From contig CAKJYB010000014.1 in the NCBI GenBank assembly GCA_918241715.1, positions 1 through 43,018 on the forward strand: a stretch of 43,018 nucleotides of DNA. The letters are read 5' to 3'. Shown here one piece after another: positions 2,431 through 29,000 of the stretch. The position numbers and the translations under genes were made by a program. Each line of letters starts with the position of its first letter. Position 1 is the first letter of the stretch. Source of the stretch: Clostridiales bacterium. GTDB lineage: Bacteria > Bacillota > Clostridia > Christensenellales > UBA1242. The notes beneath the pieces were generated by a model that saw only the letters and a list, made by a program, of their open reading frames with translations, was not told the origin of the DNA and did not search any database.

Positions 2431-5400
2431 TTATTTTAATGTAGGAAGTTTTGTAAGGTCGTTTTCATCTATGTCCCAAATCTTATTGTCAAAACCAAAA
2501 ATCAGTTTGTATCCATTGATATTTTTTTCGCAAGTATTTACGCTTACATAACCGTTTGTGTTGTCTATTCCAATTACTTCAATATCTTTTGTCGTATAGC
2601 AATTAAGCACATTTCCACGGGTTTCTCCAACAACTCCAGCCACAACAAAACCTTCTGTATCAGAAATTGAAACGTCAGAATAACAATGATTTATTCTTTT
2701 TTTTATTTCGCCATTCAAATACTCTCCAAACAGCCCAGAAAGAACTCCTTTCGTTTGTTTTGAAGTTTCGTTTGTTATATTTCCTTTTGAATAGTTGTTT
2801 TCAGCCCCGACAAACGCTTGTCCAATCATGGCACCAACAATAACTTCGTCTGCCGAACCATCTAAATTGAAATTTACAACAGATTGATTTCTTTCAATCG
2901 AAATTGAATCTCCATTTTCGGCAATTCCAACAAGTCCACCCATAACCAAGCTTGCATTGTTTGAAATTGAAACAAAATTTGTGTTGTTTGTTATGTTTTT
3001 TTCGATTTTTGATTTTTCTAAAGCTACGGCCACAGCACCACCAAAAGTGGTCTTGTTTTTTGAAATGTTTAATCTAAAGTCTGCAGCGCCGACATTCTTA
3101 ATCATTTCTCCTTCGTTTTTAGAAACAAATCCACCAATCAGTGCGTTTTGGTCGGTATTTATCTCAATATTTCCAGAAATGCTGCAATTTTCAATTCTTC
3201 CGGTGTTGTAAAGGGCAATTCCACCAAACATTTTTACGTTGTTGTACGTTGCGTCTTCCAAAAGAATGATAAGGTTTCTTATTATTCCTGAATTTGTTTT
3301 CAATAAAGAATATTCTCCCTTGTCTCCAACAAGTTTAACCCCAACAAGACAATGTCCGTTTCCGTTTAATGTTCCACCAAAATTGCTTAGTTTCCACTTT
3401 TTCCCTTCAAGGTCAATATCTTCTTCCAAAACAATCTCATAATAGTTTGAATTTTTCATGTAAGTCTGAAGATCTTTTGCTGAAGCAACCCCTATTTTTG
3501 TTTTAAGAAAATAGAAATCAACAACAAACATTGCCAAATTTACAACAGAAAGACACATCAAAACTATGCATGCGGCTTTCCATTTTCTTGTCATTTTTTT
3601 CTTTAAAACACAATACAAAATCAGGCTTATGATTCCAACCATAATGTTGTAGAGAAGAACGCCTAAAACAACTCTGTCAGAAAAATATTTCAAAACTAGT
3701 TTTGCGTTGACGCTGATAAACGTCAAAAAGACAATTCCCATCACACTTGGAACGATTTCCAAAAGCCAAAACAAAAGAGATCTCCAAAATCTCCAATGGC
3801 TTCTTTTTTCCATTCTGTCAATATATGTTTTTTCTTCTCTTTTCTTTTTTATTCTTCTGTCAACAGTGTCGCCCGAAACACCTTTAAGTCCACCACTTTT
3901 TTCCGTCAAAGCAATAACGCTTATTGAAGACTCCAAAGACAAGTCCAAAAGTTCAAGTCTTTCAAAAATCCTTACAAAAAGACTTTTATAGTCGTCAAAA
4001 GTTGAAATCGAATCTAAATTTTGAAGATAATTTTCAAAAGGTGCAAGTTGAAGTTTAAAGTAATTTATTCCCCTTAAATACGTCTTTTCGTCAGTTTTTT
4101 GCATATCAAGCAAAATTCTGTTGTTTCGATTTAAAAAGTCTGTAAGTTTTGTTTTGAGTTCCTTTTTGTCAATGGTCTCTGGTCTGATAGACACTTTTTC
4201 GCCAGAATAAAGGTGCGCTTTGCTTATGATAGCCGCATATTTTTCTGTCTGCTCTTCATTTGCAAGGTTTAAAAGCGTTCCCCATTCTGCCATTTGGGCA
4301 ACATCGACATTTGATGCAATAAGTTCGGCATCAGATTTACAATGAGCCTTTGCTTTGATAAGCATCCAATAAAGTTCGGCCTTTGCTTCCGTTTTTATTA
4401 TGGCAATTGAGATGTATTTTTCAGCAATTTTGAAAAATCCCATTTCTTCAAGTTTTTCAATGATAACTTTAAGAATTTCAACAAGTTTTTCTTTGTCTGT
4501 TATATAAGCCAGATAAAAATCAATTTGCTTTTGCACTTTTTCAGTGTCCATAAAGGCAAGTGGCAACGCCATGTTTACAACGGCATTTACAAACTGCACT
4601 CTTGTAGGTTCGTCCAAAAATTTTAAAGACTTTTCAACTTCTTCTCTGTCTCTATAGTTTAATTTGTCTTCATTTGTTTTGAAGTGGCTTAAAAGCATGG
4701 CAAAATTGCTTTGTTCATGCCCCATGTCAATCTCAAGAACTTTTTGATAGTATTCCTGATTTCCACTATACTGAGCAAGCATAAAATAGAATTCGGCAAA
4801 TCTGTCAACTTCGTCTTTTCTGAAACATCTTAAAACCTTGTCAATGAGTTCTTGGCTCTGTGTTTCTATTGCCTTGTCTTCGGCTTTTTTGATAAATTCG
4901 TCTCTCATAGGAGAAGTGTATTGAGCCAAATACAACAAAAACGCATTATAGTATTCTTCACTGTCAAGACTGATAATAAGTTTTTCCCAGTTGTCAATAA
5001 TCATTTCTGCCAAATCTTTTGAAGCGTATTTCAAAATCTTGTCAATTCTGTCTTTGTCAGAAAAGTTTCCAATGCTTTGGAAAAACTCTCCAGCAGTATG
5101 AACCTTTTTGTCGCACAACATATCTGCAAAGAGAAGTTCGGCGCTGTTTTCGTCTTTTGCAAGCTCTTCATTTATCACTTTTTTTGCTGTTTGAAAGTCA
5201 GAGTTTTTCAGACACAAGAAAATCCATCTAATTCTGTTTGCTTCACTAGTTTCCATGTTTTCAACTTCATAGTGCCCAAGCTCTACAGGATTTATGGCGT
5301 CGTCTATGTTGAAATATTCTTTCTTGTCTGGCGTAACTTTTTTGACATCAATTGTTTCAATCTTTGCCACTTCTTTTACGCCATCTTTGATTGTTTTGTC

Positions 5401-6246
5401 AACTTTTGATGTGATATCTTGCAAAAATGAAGTTGCGTTTAAATCAACAAAACTTTTGCAAAATTTCAAATCGTCTGGAAGATTGTTCTCCGTCAAATCG
5501 TTAAGCGCAATAATAAAACTTTTTGAATATTTTTTTCTTTGGTTTATGAAGTAAGAATATCTGTCAAAAACGTGCTTGTGTTCTGGATCAAAAAACTCTT
5601 TCTTGCTGTTTGAAATCAAAACAAGAGCATTTGACGTAGATAAAGCATGGAAAGTTGTCTCTTCTCTTTCTTTTACATCATTTACAAAATAGGTTTTATA
5701 TCCAAGGCTTTCAAGTTCGGCAATCGCCCTGTCAACCCTTTCGTCTTCGTTGTTTTTGCTGTATTCTGTTGCACACAAAACAACATCATATTTTTCTTTC
5801 TTGTCCAGATTTTTATAGTTTTCGCATATTTTTTCAATACGCTTTTCGATTTCGTTGTATTCAGCAAGAGTTTCTGGTGGAGAATTTTTCATTGCATACT
5901 GAAAGTCAGAATCGTCTTCCAGCGAACACACTTCGCCAAAAAATCTTGGATATTTTCTTGCTCCACGCTTGTTGTTGTAAACAATAATCTTATGTTTTGC
6001 CAGCGCCTTGCCAAAATGTGCTTCGTATGAAAGTGGATACAAAGTTAAAATTTTTTCAAACTCTTTTACTGCCGTTTCAAACTTGAAAGCACGGAGTTTT
6101 TCGTATGCTGCAACAATCAAAAAGTCTTCTTCTTTTGAAGATTGTTCGTCCACATAGAGAGTCCCACAAAACATGCATTTAACCATGTTTTGCCCAACAA
6201 CAGCATATCTCCTTCCACCACAATTTTTGCAAACGCGTTCTTTCAT
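2431..6246 (-). CDS. Multidomain membrane protein: N-terminal Zn-ribbon, TPR-like module, TIR-like flavodoxin-fold domain, long helical region, 3 TM helices, C-terminal GLUG-repeat domain
   Basis: 1271 aa. CKNCG...CMFCG at aa 6-28. YDVVLCAT...ALVLISNS beta-alpha-beta pattern at aa ~152-255. Three hydrophobic helices at aa ~820-913. Repeated GG(I/L/F)(A/V)..N.G.I.N motifs (FGGIALYNTGRIENC, IGGFVSKNEGEMIKN, MGGLVGIAENGDSI, VAGVVGETRGNVLNC) at aa ~955-1225 are typical of GLUG motif domains. Start is 2 nt after the upstream stop. Confidence 0.85.
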   Translation of the reverse strand: MKERVCKNCGGRRYAVVGQNMVKCMFCGTLYVDEQSSKEEDFLIVAAYEKLRAFKFETAVKEFEKILTLYPLSYEAHFGKALAKHKIIVYNNKRGARKYPRFFGEVCSLEDDSDFQYAMKNSPPETLAEYNEIEKRIEKICENYKNLDKKEKYDVVLCATEYSKNNEDERVDRAIAELESLGYKTYFVNDVKEREETTFHALSTSNALVLISNSKKEFFDPEHKHVFDRYSYFINQRKKYSKSFIIALNDLTENNLPDDLKFCKSFVDLNATSFLQDITSKVDKTIKDGVKEVAKIETIDVKKVTPDKKEYFNIDDAINPVELGHYEVENMETSEANRIRWIFLCLKNSDFQTAKKVINEELAKDENSAELLFADMLCDKKVHTAGEFFQSIGNFSDKDRIDKILKYASKDLAEMIIDNWEKLIISLDSEEYYNAFLLYLAQYTSPMRDEFIKKAEDKAIETQSQELIDKVLRCFRKDEVDRFAEFYFMLAQYSGNQEYYQKVLEIDMGHEQSNFAMLLSHFKTNEDKLNYRDREEVEKSLKFLDEPTRVQFVNAVVNMALPLAFMDTEKVQKQIDFYLAYITDKEKLVEILKVIIEKLEEMGFFKIAEKYISIAIIKTEAKAELYWMLIKAKAHCKSDAELIASNVDVAQMAEWGTLLNLANEEQTEKYAAIISKAHLYSGEKVSIRPETIDKKELKTKLTDFLNRNNRILLDMQKTDEKTYLRGINYFKLQLAPFENYLQNLDSISTFDDYKSLFVRIFERLELLDLSLESSISVIALTEKSGGLKGVSGDTVDRRIKKKREEKTYIDRMEKRSHWRFWRSLLFWLLEIVPSVMGIVFLTFISVNAKLVLKYFSDRVVLGVLLYNIMVGIISLILYCVLKKKMTRKWKAACIVLMCLSVVNLAMFVVDFYFLKTKIGVASAKDLQTYMKNSNYYEIVLEEDIDLEGKKWKLSNFGGTLNGNGHCLVGVKLVGDKGEYSLLKTNSGIIRNLIILLEDATYNNVKMFGGIALYNTGRIENCSISGNIEINTDQNALIGGFVSKNEGEMIKNVGAADFRLNISKNKTTFGGAVAVALEKSKIEKNITNNTNFVSISNNASLVMGGLVGIAENGDSISIERNQSVVNFNLDGSADEVIVGAMIGQAFVGAENNYSKGNITNETSKQTKGVLSGLFGEYLNGEIKKRINHCYSDVSISDTEGFVVAGVVGETRGNVLNCYTTKDIEVIGIDNTNGYVSVNTCEKNINGYKLIFGFDNKIWDIDENDLTKLPTLK

Positions 6247-6248
6247 TT

Positions 6249-7391
6249 CTATCCTTGTTTCTTTTTGTTTTGTTTTATTTGATTTCCAATTTCTTCGTTG
6301 TAAGCGTCAAAGCGTTCTATTTCTTTCTTTGTTACGCTTGGTGGCATAACAGCCAAAATATCGTCAAAATCTTTGTTTGTAACTTTTACAATTGTGTCTG
6401 TTGCAATTGCCTTTAAAAGTGGTTCGTCTTTTGCTCTATCGCAAAGTTCTTCAATGTCAGCACCACTATAATTTTCTGTTTTTTCAACCAAATCTTCAAT
6501 GCTAAAATCGTCTGCAACAGGAACACCTTTCATGTTTTTCCTAAGCATAAATTCTCTTGCAGGAGCATCTGGAAGTGGCAAATAAATTTTTTGAGAAAAT
6601 CTTCCAGAACGTGTTGCGGCAGAGTCAATATCCCAAGGTCTGTTTGTTGCTCCAAGAAGAAGCAAGTTTTGGTTTCTTCCAGCAAACCCGTCTATCTGTT
6701 GCAAAAATTCGTTGACACGCTTGTCGTTGTGCGTGTCAACTCCACGTGCACTCAAAAGGTTGTCCATTTCGTCAATAAAAATGATTGCTCTGTCTTGCTT
6801 GTTTGCTTCTGTAAACAAAGCATTTATATTCTTTTCACTATCCCCAACCCATTTGCTTACAATGTCAGAGCCCTTGACAGCATAAAACTTTGCACCAACT
6901 TCATTTGCAATTGCCTTTGCTATCATGGTCTTTCCTGTGCCCGGTGGGCCATACAAAAGAACACCACCACCAGATTTTTTGTTGTAAACTTTGTATTTGT
7001 CAGGATATTTGATTGGATTGATCATTCTGATTGTGATGGCTTTTTTGACGTCATCAAGTCCAGCAACATCAGCAAAGGTGATGTTTGGCACTTCTGCTGC
7101 TTGCCACTTTTTGAGATCTTCATCTTCTTCCTGATTTGCAGTTGTAGGTTTGTCTGTTTTTACTGGCTTTTTGTCAAGGTTTTCGGTCAATCTGACAAGT
7201 CTTCTTGCCCTTTCCATTCTTGCTTCTTTAAGTTTTCCGGTGCTCTGTTTTGCCATGAGCATCATTGTTTCACTTGCAAGAAGAAAATTTCTCCTTGCTA
7301 AAGCAGAATTACCCTTTTCTTGCGCCTGTTTTGCTTTTGCCATATAAAGGTCAAAAGTTTCGGACAAAACTGAAATACTTGGTTCTTTCAC
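6249..7391 (-). CDS. Vps4-like AAA+ ATPase with N-terminal MIT-like three-helix region
   Basis: 380 aa, GTG start. Walker A GPPGTGKT (6927..6950), Walker B IIFIDEMD. Pore-loop and flanking signature SKWVGDSEK resembles Vps4 SKWMGESEK. ATNRPWDIDSA...GRFSQKIYLPLPD and C-terminal DFDDIL..PPSV...ERF..Y..E.G resemble Vps4 and the meiotic-clade AAA proteins. The N-terminal 75 aa are helical and MIT-like. Confidence 0.8.
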   Translation of the reverse strand: MKEPSISVLSETFDLYMAKAKQAQEKGNSALARRNFLLASETMMLMAKQSTGKLKEARMERARRLVRLTENLDKKPVKTDKPTTANQEEDEDLKKWQAAEVPNITFADVAGLDDVKKAITIRMINPIKYPDKYKVYNKKSGGGVLLYGPPGTGKTMIAKAIANEVGAKFYAVKGSDIVSKWVGDSEKNINALFTEANKQDRAIIFIDEMDNLLSARGVDTHNDKRVNEFLQQIDGFAGRNQNLLLLGATNRPWDIDSAATRSGRFSQKIYLPLPDAPAREFMLRKNMKGVPVADDFSIEDLVEKTENYSGADIEELCDRAKDEPLLKAIATDTIVKVTNKDFDDILAVMPPSVTKKEIERFDAYNEEIGNQIKQNKKKQG

Positions 7392-7405: not shown

Positions 7406-7999
7406 TTATTTTGCTTCTGATTCGATTTTCTTTTTCAATTCGTCAATTTCTTTTTCGATGTTTTCGTCTGAAAGTCCGTCCAAACTTGCTTGTTCTTCAA
7501 TAAACTTTTCAAACTCTTCGTCTGTCATCTTGCCGGTCTTGTCTTTTCCAGCATTATAGAATGTTTCTTGGCTCATTTCCATAAAGTTGTCAATTTGGTC
7601 TGTTTGTGTTTCTACGGCAGCCATTGCGTTTTCAAACTGAGCCTGAATTTTTGCAAACTCTTTTGCATCAGCAAGTTTTGTCATTTCTCTGCTTATATCA
7701 CTCATTCCCCTTAAGAATTCTGATGTCATCATTGTAACATCTCTCATTTGGGCTGTGATTTCAAAGTTTAAAAGCATTTCTTGTGCTCTTCTTTGTTGTT
7801 GAACGGTCATCTTATAACCACTGAGAGCAAGGTTGTATTGTGCTTCCAAATCTTTTTCTTTTGCTCTTTTGGCTGCATCAATAAACACCTGTTTTTGATC
7901 TTCCAAACGATTGATTTGTTTGTTCATTGTGTTGATTGTTCTTTTAATCAACATCTTCTTTTCCAATTCTTTTTGTTGTTTTGATTTAAAAAGTCCCAT
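7406..7999 (-). CDS. ESCRT-III superfamily (Snf7/CHMP/PspA-like) protein, paralogue 1
   Basis: 197 aa all-helical. N-terminus MGLFKSKQQKE resembles CHMP3/PspA N-terminal amphipathic motifs. Basic N-terminal half and acidic C-terminal half. Segment MRDVTMMTSEFLRGMSDISREMTKL...FAKIQAQFENAM parallels CHMP alpha3-alpha4 regions. SD GGAGG lies 9 nt upstream, inside the preceding gene end. Confidence 0.65.
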   Translation of the reverse strand: MGLFKSKQQKELEKKMLIKRTINTMNKQINRLEDQKQVFIDAAKRAKEKDLEAQYNLALSGYKMTVQQQRRAQEMLLNFEITAQMRDVTMMTSEFLRGMSDISREMTKLADAKEFAKIQAQFENAMAAVETQTDQIDNFMEMSQETFYNAGKDKTGKMTDEEFEKFIEEQASLDGLSDENIEKEIDELKKKIESEAK

Positions 8000-8003
8000 T
8001 TTT

Positions 8004-8618
8004 TTATTCCTCCATCTTCATTTTTTTCTTTTTTGGTGCTTCTTTTTCTGCCTCTTCAACACCTATATCGTTTTCGTCTGCAAGTTGGTTTTCTTTTTCA
8101 AACATCAAAAGCACATCTTCTTCTGTCTTCCCAACTCCATAAATTGGTTCGCTTACGTCATAAGCAGCTCTAACTTCGTTGAAAAGTTCGTCAGCATTTG
8201 TAAGCACATCTTCACTTGAAATTCTGGTTTCAAGAGCTTTGTTTAGAAATCTTGCCAAACCTTTTTGGTCTTTCAAAAGGTTGCTAAGTGGAACCTTTGT
8301 TTGCGTCTTGAAAAATGTGTTGCTGTCAAACGCATCTTTAAGTTTGTTCATAAGACGAATGTTGTAAAGCAAATACATTCCCCTTTCCATTGACGTTTGC
8401 TTTTCTTCATTTAAGTTTGCAATCTTTTTTGCATACAAAAGTTGAAGATCTTTGTTTCTCTCTTTCTTTCCCTTTTCCATAAGAGCATCAATTTCTTTTA
8501 TCTTTTGGTAAATCTCTGCTTCTATTGTTCTTTCTTGCCTTTCAAGTTCGCAAATAGAGTTTACCAAATCTTCTCTCTTAAGTCTTTTGTATTTGTTTCT
8601 TCTAAATGGCCACCACAT
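8004..8618 (-). CDS. ESCRT-III superfamily-like coiled-coil protein, paralogue 2
   Basis: Start set to ATG 8618 (MWWPFRRNKYK...) because SD AAGGAG lies 6 nt upstream. The TTG at 8636 in the ORF track is less likely. Basic aromatic N-terminus, long helical hairpin-like heptads, acidic C-terminal tail (EEDVLLMFEKENQLADENDIGVEEAEKE). Confidence 0.55.
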   Translation of the reverse strand: MWWPFRRNKYKRLKREDLVNSICELERQERTIEAEIYQKIKEIDALMEKGKKERNKDLQLLYAKKIANLNEEKQTSMERGMYLLYNIRLMNKLKDAFDSNTFFKTQTKVPLSNLLKDQKGLARFLNKALETRISSEDVLTNADELFNEVRAAYDVSEPIYGVGKTEEDVLLMFEKENQLADENDIGVEEAEKEAPKKKKMKMEE

Positions 8619-8629
8619 AATTTTCTCCT

Positions 8630-8992
8630 TTAACAATTTTCTCCTTGATTTACTGCATAGATGCGTTCAAGAAGTTCGTCATAATATTTTTTTTGCGTTT
8701 CTCCAGCAAACTCCATGGCATGTTGGTATTCATTCAAAAACACCACTTCTTTATACCTGATTGGGTTTGAATACAATTCACTTTCACTTCTTATCTGACA
8801 CTTCTCAAGCATCAATCCCCAATAGGCATCTGCACACTTGCTGTCATATTGCAACGCAAGCATAAAATTCAACTTTGCTTGTTCAAACAACTCTTCACTC
8901 AAATTTATATAACCAAGTTTAAGTTCCTTGATAACTTTCGTCCTTTCTTCTTCGTTTAAATCTTCGGACGCACAATAGACTCTCCCGTTCAC
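8630..8992 (-). CDS. Small TPR-like helical protein, paralogous to aa ~40-140 of the 1271-aa protein
   Basis: 120 aa, GTG start in a GTGA overlap with the upstream stop. Shares the pattern A(Y/H)(W/F)G..L.K..I ... (Y/F)Q(H/Y)AM(E/K)....T...Y.E...RI with the N-terminal module of ORF 2431..6246. Confidence 0.6.
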   Translation of the reverse strand: MNGRVYCASEDLNEEERTKVIKELKLGYINLSEELFEQAKLNFMLALQYDSKCADAYWGLMLEKCQIRSESELYSNPIRYKEVVFLNEYQHAMEFAGETQKKYYDELLERIYAVNQGENC

Positions 8993-9399
8993 TCTTCTAT
9001 CTCTTCCTTCTTTCTTTGCACGATATATGCTTCTACTTCTTCCAAAAGCCTAAGGCAAGTTTCTTGTGTGTTGTCTTTTGCTGTTGCAATTTTCAAGTCG
9101 TCAAGTCTTGCTGCAAGTTTTGTGTCAACTTCTTGTGCTCTTGAATTTGTTGTTGGATTGAAAAACTTTATGTTGTCTTTTACTTCAACAAGTCTGTTGC
9201 AAAGTTCGTCATTTCCGTTTGCGTAAACCAAAATGCTTTCTACATTTGCAACCATGTTTTCAATTGTCTTTTTGTTTTTTAAAACTCCACGACTTCCAAC
9301 ATCTTCGCCTTTTGCATGCTTTGGTCTATATTCTCTGTAAATGAAATAAACCGAAACGCCAAGTATTGCAAGTCCTACAAACAAATAAAAAATCCACAT
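8989..9399 (-). CDS. Bitopic membrane protein with cytoplasmic helical domain (unknown family)
   Basis: 136 aa. N-terminal TM helix MWIFYLFVGLAILGVSVYFIY, then a charged helical region. SD AAGGAG lies 8 nt upstream and overlaps the upstream stop. Confidence 0.6.
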   Translation of the reverse strand: MWIFYLFVGLAILGVSVYFIYREYRPKHAKGEDVGSRGVLKNKKTIENMVANVESILVYANGNDELCNRLVEVKDNIKFFNPTTNSRAQEVDTKLAARLDDLKIATAKDNTQETCLRLLEEVEAYIVQRKKEEIEE

Positions 9400-9411: not shown

Positions 9412-10254
9412 TTACAATTTTGCTCCACAATTTAAGCAAAATTTTGATTCTTCAGAATTTTCCGTTCCACATTCTTTGCAAATGTTTTTCCTAGAAACTT
9501 TTGCTCCACAATTGTCGCAGAATCTTGAAGTTGGTTTTAAAACGTTTCCACATTCTCTGCACACAAATTGTTCTTCTTTTGTCTCTGTTTGTGCTATGTT
9601 TTTCTTCGCCTTTGAAAGTCTTGTAAAGTCGTTTTCGTCAATCACAACATTTGCAATATTGAAAGTGTAAACTGCAATTCCATAATCTCCCATAAGTCTT
9701 TGATTTATCTTGCTCAAAACTTTTGCAGAAATTTCTCTTTTCTTTGTTGTAAGTTGGTTGAACGGAATTTTGTTTTCCTGCGCATATTCAACAACTTCAT
9801 TTTCCAAAACAGAAACGACATTTATCACAAGTCTTGATTGGAGATCTTCGCTGGTCATGTTTTCGTTTGCACCAACAAGATACAAATAGCACTTTCTTGG
9901 GTCTCCAATTTGAACATCAAAGTTTCCACTCATTCCAACTTTATAGTTGTCGTCAAGTGTTGGGTCATAGACCATAAACATTTGAGATGTCCCCCAAAGA
10001 AGTTTAAGTTTTGCCGTCTTTGACATAAAAAGCACTTCAAGTTTTACGTCAAGCTCTGTCCTAAGGTCAACAAACCTGCTTATCAAATATCTTCCTGAAG
10101 AAAGCGTTTGAAGCATTTGCCCATCTTTAACAAGAATTGCGTTGTGCGTTTCTGGCACAATAAGCGTCAATTTTGGACTGATTGGATTTTCAAGTTTTCT
10201 TCTTGTAAAAAGCTGGTCGTTGTTCCCTTCAAATGTGATTACGTTTTGTTCCAT
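9412..10254 (-). CDS. SPFH/band-7-like protein of the YdjI type with two C-terminal Zn-ribbons
   Basis: 280 aa. N-terminal region (LTLIVPETHNAILVKDGQMLQTLSSGRYLI) resembles the YdjI-like stomatin/prohibitin-related family that carries C-terminal Zn-ribbons. C-terminus has CRECG...FCDNCG and CKECG...FCLNCG. Confidence 0.65.
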   Translation of the reverse strand: MEQNVITFEGNNDQLFTRRKLENPISPKLTLIVPETHNAILVKDGQMLQTLSSGRYLISRFVDLRTELDVKLEVLFMSKTAKLKLLWGTSQMFMVYDPTLDDNYKVGMSGNFDVQIGDPRKCYLYLVGANENMTSEDLQSRLVINVVSVLENEVVEYAQENKIPFNQLTTKKREISAKVLSKINQRLMGDYGIAVYTFNIANVVIDENDFTRLSKAKKNIAQTETKEEQFVCRECGNVLKPTSRFCDNCGAKVSRKNICKECGTENSEESKFCLNCGAKL

Positions 10255-10296
10255 TTGGCCAATAATATCTTTAAAAAGATATTCTCCTTCATAATG

Positions 10297-10326
10297 ATAT
10301 TAGCACACTCACTTTTCAAAAGTCAA
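10297..10326 (-). promoter_or_regulatory. Candidate sigma-A promoter of the 7-gene operon
   Basis: Minus strand: -35 TTGACT (10321..10326), 18-nt spacer ending in TGC, -10 TAATAT (10297..10302). Confidence 0.4.
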
Positions 10327-10777: not shown

Positions 10778-11164
10778 ATGAATATTCAAAAGAAATATGG
10801 TGCCGGAGCAGAACTTCTTTGGTCGGACAAAAAAAGACATATGGGCATGCCATTGTCCGTAACAAGATACAGACTTGTCAGAAAGCCAGGCGTTTGGTGC
10901 AAAGTCTTCTCTGATGTAGGTTTTTTAACTTCAACAATTGAAGAAGTAAATGTTTATAGAATTCGTGATGTTTCTTTCCGTCAAGGTTTGCTTGGAAAAA
11001 TTTTTAATACTGGAACGGTTACCCTTGTTTCAAACGACAGCTCTACAGACACTCTTGTTTTGGAAAATGTTAAAAACCCATATCAAGTTAGAGAGATGTT
11101 TGCTGACCTTATCGAAAAAGAAAGAGAACTCCATGGTGTAAAAGTTACCGAACACCAAAGATAA
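10778..11164 (+). CDS. Bacterial PH-domain (bPH_2/YdbT-like) protein
   Basis: Start set to ATG 10778, with SD AAAGGTGG 6-7 nt upstream. The pattern T.YRL....V......G.L......V.VYRIRDVSF.QGLLGKIFN.GTV resembles DUF304-type bacterial PH domains. No TM helices. Confidence 0.5.
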   Translation: MNIQKKYGAGAELLWSDKKRHMGMPLSVTRYRLVRKPGVWCKVFSDVGFLTSTIEEVNVYRIRDVSFRQGLLGKIFNTGTVTLVSNDSSTDTLVLENVKNPYQVREMFADLIEKERELHGVKVTEHQR

Positions 11165-11181
11165 TAAATTTAAAACAAATT

Positions 11182-11206
11182 GCCAAGTTTCTTCTTGGCT
11201 TTTTTA
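11182..11206 (+). terminator. Rho-independent terminator
   Basis: GCCAAG-TTTCTT-CTTGGC hairpin followed by a T run. Confidence 0.7.
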
Positions 11207-11232
11207 TTTTTTCATAAAATTTTTGTTTTTTC

Positions 11233-11261
11233 TTGACAACCAACCTTAAATATGCTATATT
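11233..11261 (+). promoter_or_regulatory. Promoter of tRNA-Ala
   Basis: -35 TTGACA (11233..11238), 17-nt spacer with TGn, -10 TATATT (11256..11261). The tRNA 5' end lies 13 nt downstream. Confidence 0.6.
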
Positions 11262-11273
11262 TTTAGAGCATAT

Positions 11274-11350
11274 GGGGGTGTGGCTCAGTTGGCTAGAGCA
11301 CCTGCCCTGCAAGCAGGGGGTCACCGGTTCGAATCCGGTCATCTCCACCA
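11274..11350 (+). tRNA. tRNA-Ala (anticodon UGC), CCA encoded
   Basis: Cloverleaf folded by hand: acceptor GGGGGTG/CATCTCC with a G3:U70 pair and A73. D stem GCTC/GAGC. Anticodon stem CCTGC/GCAGG with loop CCTGCAA. T arm ACCGG-TTCGAAT-CCGGT. 3' CCA present. Confidence 0.85.
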
Positions 11351-11394
11351 TAATCGACATTATACGGACAGAAATGTTCGTATATTTTTTGTTA

Positions 11395-11423
11395 TTGACA
11401 GACAATCTGCTCCATGATATAAT
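11395..11423 (+). promoter_or_regulatory. Consensus sigma-A promoter of the double-HEPN gene
   Basis: -35 TTGACA (11395..11400), exactly 17 nt spacer ending TGA, -10 TATAAT (11418..11423). SD AGGAG at 11432..11436. Confidence 0.65.
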
Positions 11424-11442
11424 TTTGTTATAGGAGAAAAAA

Positions 11443-12672
11443 ATGGCAAACAACATAAACGCAACAACCAGAATATTGCCAGAAGCGAGAGCTTTTATTG
11501 TTGGACATTTTATGCCCAACGAAAACCCTGTTGAAAAACATTGTTCAAACGATATGCCTTTACATTCTGCAATGTTGTGCCTTTATTCTGCCATGCTTTT
11601 GCTTCAAGTGCAAGAGATTTTTCCACAAGTACACGAATACTTTTCTGGCAGAAAAAACAAGGAATTTGATTGCAACCAAAGGGCAAGACAAATACGTTCT
11701 GACATATATAGAAAAAACCAAAATCTCAGCCAGCAAGAAATTGACCAATTGGCAGAAAAACAACTTGAAACAGAAATCAGAAATGCCTTTTCTCACGGGT
11801 GCTTTAAGTTTTCGTTTGACTCAAAATCTCAACCTGTTGTAGTCCTTTCAACAAACTATGCTGGAGCAAACCAAAATGCCTCAATCACAATTTCTTTTAA
11901 AGAGATTTTTACAACTCTTGGTGGACACATAAAACTGCAAGAATACAAAGTAAAAAAGATGTTAAAAGATTTAAACGAAAGCCTTGATTTACAGCATCTT
12001 GACAAGCAAACTTTTGCAAACTTAATCAAAGACGAAAGTCTTGATCAACAAAAAATTGAAGAAATAAAAAACTGCATTTTCAGAAATATTGCTCTTCCAA
12101 AAATGCTTCAACACATGACAAACTATTTTGTAAACAGAGACTATCAAATCCCAGAAGAAATTGACAAAAAGATAAGAAACCCTATTTATTCGACCTGTTT
12201 GGAAATCATCTTTATGACTTCGCTTATAGCATACAATCAAAATGAAGCCTACCAGACACTTTCTCCAGACTCTTTGCTCTTCAAAAAAATATCCATTCTC
12301 AGAAATTCTCTTATGCACGGACTGACAAACTTTTCAGATGGTGGCTTGAAAGTGTCCATATCTCATGGCAAACCAAAGTATGCTGGGATTTTGGACGAAG
12401 AGTTTGACTCTGTTCTTCTTGGAATGAAAATGGAGATGTGGAGTGCAGAAACCGAAATTGCAAAGATTGACAAAGCACTCAACTTTGACGACCTAAGTGA
12501 AGAAGAACAATACTATATGAAAGAAATTTTAAGGTCTTCTGGAATAACAAAAGAAAACTCCGAAGACTTGAAAGAAATAAAAGAATCTTTCCTTGAACAA
12601 ATGGGTAAAATTTATGAAGAGACCGAAAAAATCATAAACGAAAAAGCCGACCCAGATGGAGATGGAAAATAA
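11443..12672 (+). CDS. Protein with two HEPN-type RNxxxH motifs (predicted RNase, unknown family)
   Basis: 409 aa. RNAFSHG at aa 113-119 (11779..11799) and RNSLMHG at aa 287-293 (12301..12321). Each sits late in a ~150-aa helical segment, as in HEPN domains. Confidence 0.6.
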   Translation: MANNINATTRILPEARAFIVGHFMPNENPVEKHCSNDMPLHSAMLCLYSAMLLLQVQEIFPQVHEYFSGRKNKEFDCNQRARQIRSDIYRKNQNLSQQEIDQLAEKQLETEIRNAFSHGCFKFSFDSKSQPVVVLSTNYAGANQNASITISFKEIFTTLGGHIKLQEYKVKKMLKDLNESLDLQHLDKQTFANLIKDESLDQQKIEEIKNCIFRNIALPKMLQHMTNYFVNRDYQIPEEIDKKIRNPIYSTCLEIIFMTSLIAYNQNEAYQTLSPDSLLFKKISILRNSLMHGLTNFSDGGLKVSISHGKPKYAGILDEEFDSVLLGMKMEMWSAETEIAKIDKALNFDDLSEEEQYYMKEILRSSGITKENSEDLKEIKESFLEQMGKIYEETEKIINEKADPDGDGK

Positions 12673-23796: not shown

Positions 23797-23873
23797 TGGT
23801 GCTTTCGGCAGGATTTGAACCCGCAACTTCTTGGTTCGAAGCCAAGCACTCTATCCAGTTGAGTTACGAAAGC
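23797..23873 (-). tRNA. tRNA-Arg (anticodon UCG), CCA encoded
   Basis: Minus strand cloverleaf: acceptor GCTTTCG/CGAAAGC. Anticodon stem CTTGG/CCAAG with loop CTTCGAA. T arm GCGGG-TTCAAAT-CCTGC. A73 and CCA present. Confidence 0.85.
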
Positions 23874-24023: not shown

Positions 24024-26033
24024 ATGGCAAAAAGCAAAGCAAAATCTTTTATCTTACGTCTAATTATTCTTGCCGTTGTAGGCTACGTTGTCGGAGCTGC
24101 CCTTGCTTACTTTGTTGACAATGAAGTAAAAGGTGATATTGTAAAATGTCTTACAATTGACTGGGCATACTTCGGTGCTGCTGCAGGTGCAGGACTTGCT
24201 CTTCTTTCTCTTTTCTTTAAAAAACCAAAGAAGAAAATGGGTGCAGAAACAACAGGTAAAACTTCTTCCGGTGAAGAAATGGATTTGTCCTACGATGCAA
24301 AATGGTTGCTCCCAGAAGACATTAAAGACCAATTTGGTTTGATTGCAACCACATGGTCCGGGCTTCCTTCTCTTAAAAACACTGGTATTGTGTTTAGAAG
24401 TTGCATGGAAGGTGGAAAATACCATATCGCAATGAAAGACGAATATCACTGCTTGGTTATTGGTACCACCGGTTCTGGTAAAACAAGTATCGTGTTTGTT
24501 CCAACAATCAGAATTTATGCACACTCTGGAGAAAAACCATGTATGGTTATCTCAGACCCTAAGGGCGAACTTTACACAAAGACAAGCAGAATTTTGGAAG
24601 ACGAAGGATACAGAGTTATAAAATTTGACTTGCGTGATCCATTCTCTTCAACAAGATGGAACCCTATGGAACACGCCTTTGAACTTTATCACAAAGGTAA
24701 AAACTGCAAACACAACGTAAAACGTTGCACAAACGGAGCAAGACCAGAAAGCGTTGGATACAAAACAATTCCTGGTGAAAGATATGGCGAAGAATGGTTT
24801 GGTTTTGAAGGCGTTGCTTACCCAACAGAAGACGCTGTAAGAGTTGCCGTTCTAAGTCAAGAACAAATCTATTGCGACTTGGCACAAAGCGAACTTAAAG
24901 AAATCTGCAACACGGTTGCACCAAAAACAAAAGGCTCCAACGACCCAACATGGGAAGAAGGTGCACAAGACTTCCTTTATGGTTGTGCCCTTGCCATGCT
25001 TGAAGATAGTATGGACCCAGAACTTGGAATGACAAAAGATAAATTCAACTTCTACAACCTTTACAAAATTGCAACATTCCGTGATCCAGATGCTGACGCA
25101 CCATTTGAAACGGTCAGAAAATATCTTCTTCAAGGACGTGACGAAGCAACAAGTGTTGTTCCAAACCTTACATCAGCTGTTATTAACAACGCACCAAATA
25201 CAACAAAATCATATATCGGTGTTTTGAATGGTAAAATTTCTTTCATGAATGATATTGGTATTTCTTACCTTACTTCAGAAAGCGACATAAACTTTGACAC
25301 CTTCACCGACAAACCTACAGCAATTTACCTTGTTATTCCAGATGATAGAGAAGAACGTTATACCCTTGCAACATTGTGCATCTCTCAACTTTACAAACGT
25401 CTTGTTGACAAAGCAAACTCTTATCATGGTGGAAAACTTCCAAAGCACGTTTACTTCATTTTGGACGAATTCGGAAACATGCCACCAATTCCAAAATTTG
25501 ACAGCATGATTACCGTTTCCCGTGGTAGAAACATTTTATATGAAGCCGTTGTTCAGTCTTACACGCAGATTGAAACAAAATATGGCGCAGATGCTGCAAA
25601 AACCATTATCGGAAACTTCAACTCTCAAATTTATCTTGGAACAGACGACCAAAAGACAAGAGACGACTTCTCCAAGATGTGTGGTGAAGTTCAGTTGATT
25701 CACGAAGAAAAGAGCACGTCCAAAAACGAAAAGGACGACAAAGACTCCAAGACAACAAACACAAGCGTTCAAAGAACAACCCGTGCCCTTATCACTTCTT
25801 ACGAACTTGGACAAATTCCATTCGGTACAATGGTTGTAAAACTCTTCAGATACAACCCAATGAAACTTAAAGGAACAAGAAATGACCAAGTTCCATTCTT
25901 CTATAAGAAAGAAGCAGAACAAACGATTGGCGCAATGAAGAGCCTTGATACAGCAAAGGTTTACTATGATATCAAAATGAGAAATAAAAAGGTTATAAAG
26001 CCTTCTTCTTCAGGGTTTGGAAGTTTCTTCTAG
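24024..26033 (+). CDS. VirD4/TraG-family type IV coupling protein-like ATPase
   Basis: 669 aa. Two N-terminal TM helices, Walker A GTTGSGKT, VISDPKGELY, Walker B-region YFILDEFGNMPPIP and SRGRNILYEAVVQSYTQIETKYG, all typical of T4CP (TraG/TraD/VirD4) proteins. SD AAGGAG upstream. Confidence 0.75.
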   Translation: MAKSKAKSFILRLIILAVVGYVVGAALAYFVDNEVKGDIVKCLTIDWAYFGAAAGAGLALLSLFFKKPKKKMGAETTGKTSSGEEMDLSYDAKWLLPEDIKDQFGLIATTWSGLPSLKNTGIVFRSCMEGGKYHIAMKDEYHCLVIGTTGSGKTSIVFVPTIRIYAHSGEKPCMVISDPKGELYTKTSRILEDEGYRVIKFDLRDPFSSTRWNPMEHAFELYHKGKNCKHNVKRCTNGARPESVGYKTIPGERYGEEWFGFEGVAYPTEDAVRVAVLSQEQIYCDLAQSELKEICNTVAPKTKGSNDPTWEEGAQDFLYGCALAMLEDSMDPELGMTKDKFNFYNLYKIATFRDPDADAPFETVRKYLLQGRDEATSVVPNLTSAVINNAPNTTKSYIGVLNGKISFMNDIGISYLTSESDINFDTFTDKPTAIYLVIPDDREERYTLATLCISQLYKRLVDKANSYHGGKLPKHVYFILDEFGNMPPIPKFDSMITVSRGRNILYEAVVQSYTQIETKYGADAAKTIIGNFNSQIYLGTDDQKTRDDFSKMCGEVQLIHEEKSTSKNEKDDKDSKTTNTSVQRTTRALITSYELGQIPFGTMVVKLFRYNPMKLKGTRNDQVPFFYKKEAEQTIGAMKSLDTAKVYYDIKMRNKKVIKPSSSGFGSFF

Positions 26034-26095: not shown

Positions 26096-29000
26096 TTAAA
26101 TAACAGCCTTTGTGAATGTTACTTGAAGTTTGTATGCCTTGACAACTTGCACGTCTCCTTCGGTTGTTGTTACCTTGATGTAGTATTCTTGCACTACAGG
26201 ACTTGACAAGTCTGAAAGGTTTGTTTCTGTCCTATTTTCAAGAATTCCCAATTGTCTGTTGAGAACAAAGTATTCAACTCTTCCACCACCTTCTCCAAGG
26301 ATATCTTCGTCAAGACTTGAAAGTTGATATTGGTTGTTTTGTTGAACTTCCATATCAAGTGTTTTTACGCTTTCGTATACATATATAGTATATCTTACAA
26401 TTGCGTTTTTGTTTGTTTCAACGTTTGTCTTTCTGATAAAGAAGTCTTCTTCTATCATATCTGCAGTTATCTTTTCGGTGTTCTCAACTATTGTAAGTTT
26501 GTTGTTTTCGTCAATTCTATATACGTTGTAGTTTCCGATATTTGCAACATCAAAGTTTTCGTCGTAGAGACTTAAAATTGTCTTCTTTAAACTCTCTTCG
26601 CTTGTCGTTTGCTTTTGAATTATGTCATAAGCAAAACCTTTTGAACTGCCGTAAATGTAATATGTTACTCTATACAATATATAATAGTGTTGACTTTCTT
26701 TTGTGATATCTGCCAAATAGAACACTTCGTTTTCGTTGTCTGTTTCAGAGAACACATCTTCTTCTTGAGTTGTTCTTTCAAATGTTTGTGTTGGAGAATC
26801 TGCTCCTACACTGCCAACCTTATAGAAGTTTGAGATTTGTTCTTCATTTTCTTTGTCAAGTCTTCTCAATGCAAAGATTTCTGTTGCTTGCTTTTTATAG
26901 TAAAGTTCTCTGTCAGCCTTGTATACATAAATCATGTATTTCTTGTATGATGTTGTGTTTTGTGAATTGTCATATTTTACAACTTCATATTCAAAATATC
27001 CACTTTCGTTAAACGTTTTTGAGTCTATTTCGTTGTCTTCGCCTGCGTTTATTGTAAGCCCATCAAACTCAACTTCTTCACCTTCTTCAATAACGTAAGT
27101 AAGCTCTGATCCTTCTGCTGAATTATAGCAATAGAATGTTGCTGTAAATCTGAATCCGTTGTTTGTTGCTGTGGCCCCATTCAATGTTACTGCTGTTGCA
27201 TAAATTGTAAGGTCATGCTTTCCAAGACTTGTAAACTTCCATGTGTCAAGATTGTCAATATGATATACATTTGAATTGTCTTTAATCACATGATAATGAA
27301 TGTTTGTTGCGTTTGCAAAGTGATCTTTTACATACTCTTCAAAGATATCACTCAATTCAAACTCTTCATTGATTTCTTTATAATTGTTTTCATCAAAGGT
27401 GTCAGATGTGCTTACAACGCTTCCAATCATTGCCTCTGAAGAGTCTTTGTAATAAGTTCCATTTTCAAGGAAGTAAATTGTGTTTCCTGCCTGTCTTATT
27501 TCTCCACTTTCTGCCGATATTGTCTGTGAGTTTGAAAGTGTTGTTTGAACAAGATACATTCTCACTTGACCAATTCTGTTGGAAGTTGTCGTTTCAAATG
27601 TTCCGTCTGCTGTGGAAATCTTTACATCAATATTGATGGTGATTGTCCCAGATGCAATATCAAATGTTTCATGTGTGTAAATGTTTCCGTTTTCGTCAAT
27701 GAATGCAGCACCTGCACCACCAGATATGTCATCATTGATTTCAAACTTAAGCATATGAGTTGAAATGGTTGAAAGCAAATCTTCTCCAGAAATGCTTATA
27801 AGTTTTATGCGCTGTGCCCACATTGTGTAAGGAATTACATAGTATGGTCTTCTTCCGTCTGCTGTATACTTATAATATGTTTGAACAGGAATTCTGATGT
27901 TTCCTTGTGTATCCATATGTTCTGCAGAAACAGGCTCTGTTGCATAATATGCAGGATATACTGAGAATTCTTGTGTGCATTGATACAACCTTTCTACTCC
28001 AACATCATATTTATACTTATATACAAAGTAAAGTCTTCTCTTTGCACAAGATGTTGCCGTTATCACTGCTGGAAGTTCGTTTGAATCAAATATCTTAAGT
28101 TTAATTGCATTTGCACTATAGGTTTTGTATTGGAATTTCCTTGCGCTTACTTCGCCCGATTGAGCAACTTCAGCTCCATTATATCTAAATTTTACGTTGC
28201 TGTTTGGTTGTTCAACGTTCAAGCAAAGGTAACTTGAGTTTGCTGTAAGGTTTGTTGTCAACCCCTTTAAGTTTCTTGTTATTCCAACATATTCTGTTAC
28301 TTTATAGTTCTTTGTATTTGAAATAACAACTTTGTTTCCGTCTAATCCAACAACGCTGTCTCCTTCAACTCTTTGCAAACTGAAAGTTATTGATGCGCCA
28401 GGCTCAAGGTCAACTTCAAGAGTATCGTTGTTTACTTGCGTTATCTGATCATTTTCGGTAAGTTCAACAACGCCGCCATCTCTAAGGTCTGTGGATTGGA
28501 AGATGTTTGTTACTCCAATAGTATTCTTTTCAAATGTAACTTCTCTTTCTATTGTTCCGACGTTTGTTCCATCGGTAAGAGTTATCACCATTTTTATTCC
28601 AGAAACTCTTGTTCCTGTTCCATACAAGAATCCGTCAAGTCTTGGGATTGTTATTGAGTGGTTGTCTTTGTTGTAATCTTGTCCTTGTGCAAGTGTGTTG
28701 TCTGTTTTGCAATAGTATACTTCACTGGACGTAAACATTCCCGTTCCACCGGTTTCTGCCACTTTTGTTTCTCCATAGTAGAATTCAACTTTGGATATTG
28801 TAAACTCTGTTATTCTTGATTTTAATACAGATTGTTCACTTAAACTTACCCATCTCTTCTTGTATCCGTTTGCAGAAATTCCAGAGATCACTGCAAGTCT
28901 TGTTGTTCCGGCTTCTTCACCTTTTATTTCTGGTTGTTCAAATGAAACTGGTGTGTATATTGGTGCCAAAGAATAACTATTATCCCCTTCGGTCCAAACA

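Follow-up and report, generated by a model that had tools for sequence, protein, structure and literature searches.

The window analysed here, the whole 43,018-nucleotide contig CAKJYB010000014.1 of a Clostridiales bacterium, carries on its minus strand two adjacent genes, which we call E3a (7406..7999) and E3b (8004..8618), and we consider it likely that their products are two distinct subunits with which a gut Clostridia lineage, 'Candidatus Caccovivens' among its members, builds a membrane-remodelling machine of ESCRT-III/Vps4 type. We assign E3a (197 residues, beginning MGLFKSKQQKE) to the A-type (CHMP2/Vps2/Did2-like) ESCRT-III/Snf7 subunits, with arCOG07402 as its archaeal counterpart, while E3b (204 residues, beginning MWWPFRRNKYKRLKR) is probably a divergent ESCRT-III-like subunit with its archaeal counterpart in arCOG09749/09747. 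Judged by their profiles, the two are anciently separated subfamilies that both also occur in euryarchaeal ESCRT loci. In nearly all loci they are linked to an AAA ATPase of Vps4 layout, to an SPFH protein with a zinc ribbon, and to single-pass and three-pass (1271-residue) membrane proteins.

The preliminary description of this DNA had reported two adjacent open reading frames (ORFs) here, and both were found on the minus strand where it had placed them. The E3b ORF spans 8004..8636 if a TTG start is used and 8004..8618 if translation begins at ATG; we take the ATG at 8618 as the real start because an AAAGGAG ribosome-binding site lies 7 nucleotides (nt) upstream of it and because homologues begin MW(W)PF. 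The ATG of E3a (7999) is likewise preceded by a GGAGGA site. Both are real genes rather than chance ORFs, since database searches at E<=1e-3 returned 528 clusters for E3a and 265 for E3b, and since the pair is syntenic across 63 species-level genomes, with identities to the window of 59-90% for E3a and 45-84% for E3b and with E3b missing only on two short contigs. These 63 loci, all in Clostridia metagenome-assembled genomes (MAGs), come from a scan of one genome per species that was seeded with the close E3a alignment, and what it recovered is a Caccovivens-related clade; the named homologues of E3a and E3b belong to 'Candidatus Caccovivens' and other Clostridia MAGs. The helicity and charge asymmetry described earlier also held up. 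AlphaFold2 predicts both proteins to be all-helical, and net charge by thirds is +7/-2/-11 in E3a and +6/+4/-11 in E3b, with +5 over residues 1-20 of each, so that both have the basic N-terminal half and the acidic C-terminal tail of ESCRT-III proteins.

The evidence for E3a comes from a deep family alignment. Alignments of close relatives (76-93% identity) are shallow (Neff, the effective number of sequences, 1.3), and 358 related clusters came out when 1.84 billion cluster representatives were searched exhaustively by profile; the resulting alignment, A3, holds 96 E3a family members with a mean identity of 23%. Searched against the PDB, the A3 profile matches human CHMP2A (7zcg_B) at E 2.4e-6 over residues 8-150, followed by chains of CHMP1B, CHMP3 and Vps24 with marginal E-values, and not the unrelated coiled-coil families that the preliminary description had named as the outcome that would speak against its proposal. 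Taken individually, 42 of the 96 family members match Pfam Snf7 (PF03357), the best at 1.4e-9, whereas PspA_IM30 (PF04012) is matched by none of these 96, by none of the 26 E3b family members, and by neither E3a nor E3b themselves; membership of PspA/Vipp1 was rejected on this result. As Snf7 references we used six canonical ESCRT-III sequences, validated as full-length PF03357 members. The A3 hidden Markov model (HMM) scores CHMP2A at 38 bits, CHMP1B at 17 and CHMP3 at 14.5, and the best of 300 shuffled sequences reached 7.4. In hhalign the E3a family aligns with the A-type set (CHMP2A/CHMP3/CHMP1B) at 96.2% probability (E 2.2e-9, 161 columns) and with the B-type set at 53%; for its similarity to Snf7 proteins as such, hhalign gave 95.9-96.2%. 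The helices that AlphaFold2 predicts for E3a (7-48, 52-109, 112-151, 160-171 and 178-196) have boundaries that would fit the ESCRT-III arrangement of an alpha1-alpha2 hairpin followed by alpha3-alpha5, at a low mean predicted local distance difference test score (pLDDT) of 59.5. The Foldseek comparison that had been suggested as a check was favourable in composition, with chains of the ESCRT-III superfamily (CHMP1B, CdvB, CHMP2A, Asgard ESCRT-IIIB, CHMP3 and Vipp1) making up 13 of the top 16, and not significant chain by chain, all having E >= 0.1. With the CHMP2A match, the Snf7 matches of the family members and the A-type alignment in hand, the earlier proposal that E3a is ESCRT-III-like is borne out, and we regard its classification as a true Snf7/ESCRT-III protein of A type (CHMP2/Vps2-like) as solid.

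A tblastn search of plasmids with E3a returned one record, the Thermococcus peptonophilus plasmid NZ_CP014751 (E 3e-8), and the encoded protein, WP_062390961 (BLASTP E 3e-16 to E3a), is classed as arCOG07402, 'ESCRT-III/Snf7 family' (PMC10936438). The N-terminus of the Thermococcus homologue reads MVRLWKSKEEKEIERK, and the N-terminal motif common to it and E3a is LWKSKEEKEIERK (xxLWKSKEEKEIERK). The basic and aromatic motif MGLFKSK at the N-terminus of E3a (7979..7999, minus strand) is a putative membrane-binding helix alpha0; it is the commonest N-terminus of the family, found exactly in 12 of the 96 members, and hydrophobic followed by basic residues stand near the start in 49. At the other end of E3a, residues ~176-190 (7430..7474, minus strand) form a predicted MIM1-like helix, DENIEKEIDELKKKI. 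When the final 40 residues are scanned for the pattern [DE]xx-Phi-xxx-Phi-xx-Phi, 52 of the 96 members have it, while each of two control windows inside the proteins gives 3 of 96. The MIM1 consensus is (D/E)xxLxxRLxxL(K/R), which we take the C-terminal motif of E3a to resemble.

For E3b the connection to Snf7 is indirect. We find no Snf7 match for E3b or for any of the 26 E3b family members, the E3b HMM scores the Snf7 references no higher than shuffled sequences, and BLASTP detects no similarity between E3a and E3b. In hhalign, the E3b family aligns with the E3a family over 141 colinear columns with a score of 33.5 (47%), where 2 reversed and 120 shuffled controls all gave 23.8 or less, and with the six Snf7 references at 30.0, where controls gave 21.4 or less; the reference alignment places the WPF motif of E3b on the LFG motif and its EKGKKE hairpin tip on the tip of CHMP4B. 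To call the two proteins paralogues, as had been done, therefore overstated their likeness, since what stands is a weak colinear signal between profiles and no BLASTP similarity. Distant E3b relatives were taken from the neighbours of distant E3a homologues and from a final database search (14 proteins), and we distinguish two subfamilies, g1, which is the window's type and includes L064 and P0404, and g2, the type of L066 and L073. In hhalign the two align with a probability of 91.4% (E 8.9e-7, 160 colinear columns; block-shuffled controls <= 29.1) and give reciprocal HMM matches of up to 32 bits. The g2 HMM also finds the Thermococcus proteins WP_062390966 (41.1 bits) and WP_062390968 (35.0 bits), and once these are added to g2 the g1-g2 probability rises to 94.5%. 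The curated name of arCOG09749/09747 is 'Snf7 family protein' (Tables S1/S2, PMC10936438). The claim that E3b is ESCRT-III-like thus stands as far as this chain of homology to arCOG09749/09747 carries it and finds no direct Pfam or PDB match behind it, and we conclude that E3b probably represents a second, very divergent subfamily of which the archaeal members are curated as Snf7.

The predicted structure of E3b comprises helices 15-52, 56-98, 111-133, 141-152 and 166-192, the first two of which form a confidently predicted alpha1-alpha2 hairpin (residues 15-98; 8325..8576, minus strand) with its tip at EKGKKE and a pLDDT of 84-92; G50 is nearly invariant in the family. The non-significant Foldseek and PDB matches of E3b repeatedly include CdvB, CdvB2, Asgard ESCRT-IIIB and Vipp1, and in the PDB profile search with the E3b family CdvB appears at a non-significant E of 0.13 with a colinear N-terminal alignment. 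We also observed two conserved elements at the C-terminus (8004-8050, minus strand). The terminal KKKK-x-KMEE is kept in the Caccovivens-type clade and not in more distant relatives, while IYG...E(D/E)xLxxFE just upstream of it is more widely kept; counterparts are known for neither, and one or the other may serve as an ATPase-binding motif of a second kind.

The ATPase gene next to E3a (6249..7391, minus strand) encodes 380 residues with a helical MIT-like N-terminus, one classic AAA domain and a C-terminal Vps4_C helix. Pfam reports AAA at 1.1e-41 together with AAA_lid_3, and Vps4_C at 20.3 bits, below its cut-off of 21.3, which orthologues on L056 and L074 pass at 24.0 and 26.8 bits; with the orthologue scores included, we find a single classic AAA domain combined with a C-terminal Vps4 oligomerisation helix. 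The NCBIfam CdvC model aligns with residues 8-367 at 208.8 bits, where the equivalog cut-off is 650, and the CDC48 model scores slightly higher (221.5 bits). The N-terminus is a conserved helical domain of ~75 residues. This domain recurs on another contig (L067:92-6406), where the gene after an E3a homologue encodes a SpoVK-type AAA ATPase (AAA_lid_6) with the same MIT-like N-terminal domain and the next ones encode unknown proteins, two double-zinc-ribbon proteins and a 496-residue membrane-anchored protein, and its presence in both kinds of ATPase argues that it couples ATPases to E3a-type proteins. The neighbour had been described as Vps4-like, a term that fits its architecture and its linkage in nearly all loci, while strict orthology to archaeal Vps4 is unsupported: by scores and motifs we found neither a CdvC equivalog score nor a grouping with archaeal Vps4 over Cdc48. 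We accordingly use 'Vps4-like' in an architectural sense, for layout and genomic linkage, with orthology to archaeal Vps4 not established.

E3a, E3b and the ATPase belong to a set of seven minus-strand genes that follow one another at distances of -4 to 14 nt, in the order SPFH plus zinc-ribbon protein, small membrane protein, small helical protein, E3b, E3a, ATPase and 1271-residue membrane protein. The whole order is kept in >50 of the 63 loci and the E3b-E3a-ATPase trio in nearly all, with gaps in the trio confined to a few contigs that are short or distant; the identity of the ATPase to that of the window is 60-81%. The first gene (9412..10254, minus strand) encodes a 280-residue SPFH protein (Band_7_1, E 7.8e-17) with two C-terminal zinc ribbons (Zn_Ribbon_1, DZR), which lies upstream of E3b in 60 of 63 loci and also in L074/L075. 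It is followed by a 136-residue membrane protein (8989..9399, minus strand) with one N-terminal transmembrane (TM) helix (hydropathy peak at residues 2-20), without a Pfam or NCBIfam family match and kept in 59 of 63 loci, and by a soluble helical protein of 120 residues (8630..8992, minus strand), possibly TPR-like (sub-threshold TPR_8 only), which is kept in 55 of 63 loci and whose start overlaps the end of the 136-residue gene by 4 nt. The last gene (2431..6246, minus strand) encodes the 1271-residue membrane protein, which has an N-terminal zinc ribbon, a TPR/helical region, three TM helices by hydropathy (828-909) and C-terminal GLUG repeats, with Pfam TPR_14 and Glug below threshold; 59 of the 63 loci carry it downstream of the ATPase, at an identity of just 23-46%. 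A TPR-like module common to its N-terminus and the 120-residue protein was considered and not supported (BLASTP E 1.0). Two overlapping sigma-70-like consensus matches form promoter-like sites 5' of the SPFH gene (10291..10326, minus strand), and no terminator-like site was found on the minus strand between 10254 and 2431.

Related operons lie on more distant bacterial contigs (L064, L073 and L074/L075). In L074/L075 the genes encode an SPFH plus zinc-ribbon protein, a 110-residue protein, E3b, E3a, a two-AAA ATPase with Vps4_C and a 1147-residue TPR protein, and the operon adjoins a SecE-NusG-L11-L1-L10-L7/L12 cluster. The ATPase of this more distant Clostridia lineage (L074:9212-14889, also L075) consists of a SpoVK-type AAA (AAA_lid_6) followed by a classic AAA with Vps4_C, and the large downstream TPR protein of L074 has a sub-threshold TIR_2 match (25.3 bits, cut-off 28). 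Contig L073 (1151-7450) holds three E3b-like genes, an E3a-like gene and two unknown 224-residue proteins, together with an archaeal-type Vps4 (261 bits to Thermococcus Vps4) and a second ATPase of the window's type, so that both types stand on one contig; L073 looks bacterial, carrying RibE, MtaB of the bacterial TIGR01579 type, and NrnA. Domains of E3a type are also found N-terminally fused to FtsK_alpha+FtsK_SpoIIIE (P0296, P0299, P0303, P0306 and others) and to RuvB_N+RuvB_C, sometimes followed by NERD (P0300, P0305, P0313, P0319 and P0375), and these fusions suggest that motors of several kinds have been joined to one and the same polymer-forming domain.

Outside the operon the window encodes MscL, MetK, NrdD, thioredoxin reductase, ABC-F, GlyRS, a VirD4-like protein and two tRNAs, and this remainder is ordinary bacterial chromosome. 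The hosts of these loci are taken as bacterial because of MscL, ABC-F and the VirD4-like protein in the window, the bacterial ribosomal-protein operon in L074, and RibE and MtaB in L073. The VirD4-like conjugal coupling protein (24024-26033, plus strand; CD1115 family, 291 bits, above cut-off) lies just past tRNA-Arg (23797-23873), in a stretch where GC is raised (0.39) and AT skew reversed as nowhere else in the window, and this stretch may be the remnant of an integrated conjugative element. The largest gene product of the window is that of a single ORF of 3974 residues (26096-38020, minus strand). A 124-residue ORF (11145-11519, minus strand) overlaps tRNA-Ala(TGC) (11274-11350, plus strand), and as its translation reads as a tRNA artefact it is probably no gene.

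The closest counterpart of the operon is the euryarchaeal 'Main clade' ESCRT system, in which the T. peptonophilus locus is listed (Makarova et al. 2024, PMC10936438). That locus comprises arCOG08177, arCOG09748, arCOG09747, arCOG09749, a Ser/Thr kinase, Vps4 (arCOG01307), a phosphatase and arCOG07402 (PMC10936438). The two systems share the same two ESCRT-III subfamilies (E3a with arCOG07402, the E3b family with arCOG09749/09747) in one locus with a single-AAA ATPase bearing Vps4_C, and they differ in that the window's host is bacterial and its ATPase core is Cdc48 D2-like. The Main clade accessories, a winged-helix (wH) protein (arCOG09748), a Cas2/TBP protein (arCOG08177), the Ser/Thr kinase and a PP2C phosphatase, are absent from the window's operon, where Pfam and NCBIfam gave no kinase, PP2C or wH matches among the other five proteins and where the SPFH plus zinc-ribbon, small membrane, small helical and 1271-residue membrane proteins stand in their place. 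As judged from the sequences, the core of the operon is thus a euryarchaeal ESCRT-III/Vps4 module in bacteria, with other accessory proteins and another ATPase subtype. An SPFH protein with zinc ribbons also lies beside Vps4 and ESCRT-III in the archaeal 'Meth_adaptin' system (PMC10936438), which by this description resembles the start of our operon with its SPFH plus double zinc-ribbon protein; the adaptin-appendage, GOLD and ProX components of that system were not found, or not searched for, in the window's operon. With the crenarchaeal Cdv system (CdvA/CdvB/CdvC) and with Asgard and eukaryotic ESCRT-IIIA/B plus Vps4, the operon shares several ESCRT-III paralogues adjoining an ATPase, which in the window is of putative MIT-AAA layout; E3a, with its predicted MIM1-like C-terminus, is an A-type subunit like Vps2/CHMP2/Did2. 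The operon differs in having no CdvA, no wH on an ESCRT-III protein and no ESCRT-I/II, in an ATPase below the CdvC equivalog cut-off and in an E3b that is not assignable to the B type.

Among bacterial systems, PspA/Vipp1 (IM30) belongs to the same superfamily and shares the helical-hairpin design, the bacterial host and, in some PspA operons, SPFH/Band-7 partners; it differs in that the E3a family matches Snf7 and not PspA_IM30 and in that the window's system has a linked Vps4-like ATPase, which is not known for PspA (PMC7619361). Transfers of Vps4-like ATPases into a number of bacterial phyla have been reported, in which a TPR + 6TM protein has displaced snf7 (PMC11237479). Operons of the Opitutus ACB74714.1 type (PMC11237479) likewise place a bacterial Vps4-like ATPase beside a large TPR + TM protein, and by this description they resemble our operon, whose 1271-residue protein has a TPR-like region and three TM helices; they differ in that snf7 is said to be displaced there, whereas the window's operon has two Snf7-family genes. 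Some bacterial Snf7 homologues with AAA+ ATPases are mentioned, the Clostridia system not among them (PMC11237479). Our full-text literature search found no description of a Clostridia ESCRT-III/Vps4 operon, its coverage being incomplete and an earlier description elsewhere being possible, and the phrase 'bacterial Vps4' was not met among the top-ranked full-text matches.

Several results weigh against reading the pair and its ATPase as an ESCRT-III/Vps4 machine. As a single sequence and as a shallow alignment, E3a gives nothing above threshold in Pfam, NCBIfam or the PDB, and because both E3a and E3b are themselves below every threshold there, their classification depends on family profiles. 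Mean AlphaFold2 confidence is 59.5 for E3a and 67.6 for E3b and no Foldseek match is significant, which we attribute to the shallow alignments on which the models were built. E3b has no significant Pfam or PDB match at any alignment depth, is at noise level in hhalign against both the A-type and the B-type three-sequence reference sets, for which reason its type is not assignable, and is tied to Snf7 only transitively, from g1 to g2 to arCOG09749/09747. On the side of the ATPase, Pfam MIT does not match the N-terminal domain, whose profile has the MIT domain of Sulfolobus Vps4 (2w2u) as its best natural-protein PDB match at E 0.12, the AAA core scores 200.8 bits to p97 D2 against 157 bits to Thermococcus Vps4, and the second region of homology (SRH), RSGRF, is Cdc48-like. 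The pore loop of this ATPase type is SKWVGDSEK, and the other ATPase type (L066, L073_404 and Thermococcus Vps4) has SKYFGESSK as pore loop and SRFxKRI as SRH.

These points leave room for other explanations. It is unlikely, in our judgement, that the operon is a PspA/Vipp1-like module, that is, a stress-induced membrane-stabilising coat that carries out no scission and whose ATPase is a chaperone or regulator, as PspF is for PspA. Known bacterial proteins of the ESCRT-III superfamily do serve membrane maintenance (PMC7619361), SPFH/Band-7 partners are known in PspA operons (PMC11237479), and the Cdc48-like ATPase core is not clearly of the Vps4 clade; yet the E3a family matches Snf7 and never PspA_IM30 and groups with CHMP2/CHMP1/CHMP3, two distinct subunits, a MIM1-like tail and a Vps4_C ATPase form an ESCRT-III/Vps4 arrangement, and PspF is a sigma-54 activator, which the window's ATPase is not. 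We give somewhat less credence still to the idea that E3a alone is ESCRT-III and E3b an unrelated coiled-coil adaptor or regulator (in a CdvA-like or IST1-unrelated role) that has just length, helicity and charge pattern in common with it. The missing Pfam, PDB and BLASTP matches of E3b and its families, the hhalign probability of 47% to the E3a family and the noise against the three-sequence sets would fit such a protein. Against this, no shuffled or reversed control reaches the hhalign scores that the E3b family has with the E3a family and with the Snf7 references, both alignments stay colinear from the N-terminal motif to the hairpin, E3b is homologous to arCOG09749/09747, which are curated as Snf7, its long hairpin is confidently predicted, and CdvB at E 0.13 aligns colinearly at the N-terminus. 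Quite improbable is an anti-phage or conflict system in which the ESCRT-III-like proteins and the ATPase act as effector or sensor and the zinc-ribbon/TPR protein as signalling hub. The ATPase matches the defence ATPases IetA/IteA, generically, the L074 positional orthologue of the 1271-residue protein has the sub-threshold TIR_2 noted above, and the 1271-residue protein evolves fast; but an IetS-type partner is absent, PADLOC matches no other operon protein, E3a has no match among 50,697 phage records, and, unlike a patchy defence island, the operon has a fixed chromosomal position in 63 species genomes with core identity of 70-90% in most, which fits a vertically inherited housekeeping function. 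A known defence system was rejected on the generic AAA matches that PADLOC returned. A phage or plasmid origin was also considered and rejected, there being no phage match and the single plasmid match being the Thermococcus ESCRT locus.

We therefore return to an ESCRT-III/Vps4-type machine and put forward a hypothetical mechanism for it, all steps of which beyond homology and gene linkage we infer from the sequences. The basic N-terminal halves of E3a and E3b would bind the cytoplasmic face of the membrane, where the alpha1-alpha2 hairpins of the two proteins would assemble together as a composite filament. In the monomers the acidic C-terminal tails would be autoinhibitory, and they would also offer the ATPase a motif for its MIT-like domain; the ATPase hexamer would pull subunits through its pore loop (SKWVGDSEK), so that the filament would turn over and the membrane would be deformed or cut. 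The site of action would be set by the SPFH and transmembrane proteins, and the process served could be abscission at the division site, vesicle release or membrane repair. In its strongest form, towards which we lean by a little, the proposal is that gut Clostridia and the bacteria of L064, L073 and L074 have a complete, functional archaeal-type ESCRT-III/Vps4 machine, either acquired from Euryarchaeota or older than assumed, that would carry out ATP-driven scission (the final division cut, vesicle release) in a walled bacterium.

In current accounts only archaea and eukaryotes pair Snf7-type ESCRT-III with Vps4 (PMC10936438), a 2025 review writes of a Vps4-like ATPase that it 'appears absent in bacteria' (PMC7619361), and bacterial Vps4-like genes have been reported only where snf7 is displaced (PMC11237479). 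An A-type Snf7 protein together with what is probably a second, archaeal-type Snf7 protein and an ATPase of Vps4 layout, across dozens of gut Clostridia species, would be a counter-example to the line drawn around archaea and eukaryotes. The operon offers a bacterial setting for studying how ATPases control ESCRT-III polymers, and it raises the question of what role such a machine has in a cell enclosed by peptidoglycan. The operon is relevant, too, to whether ESCRT-III and Vps4 became partners a single time, in archaea, or moved between domains, and the fusions to FtsK-type and RuvB-type motors suggest that bacteria have coupled an ESCRT-III-like polymer to several different motors.

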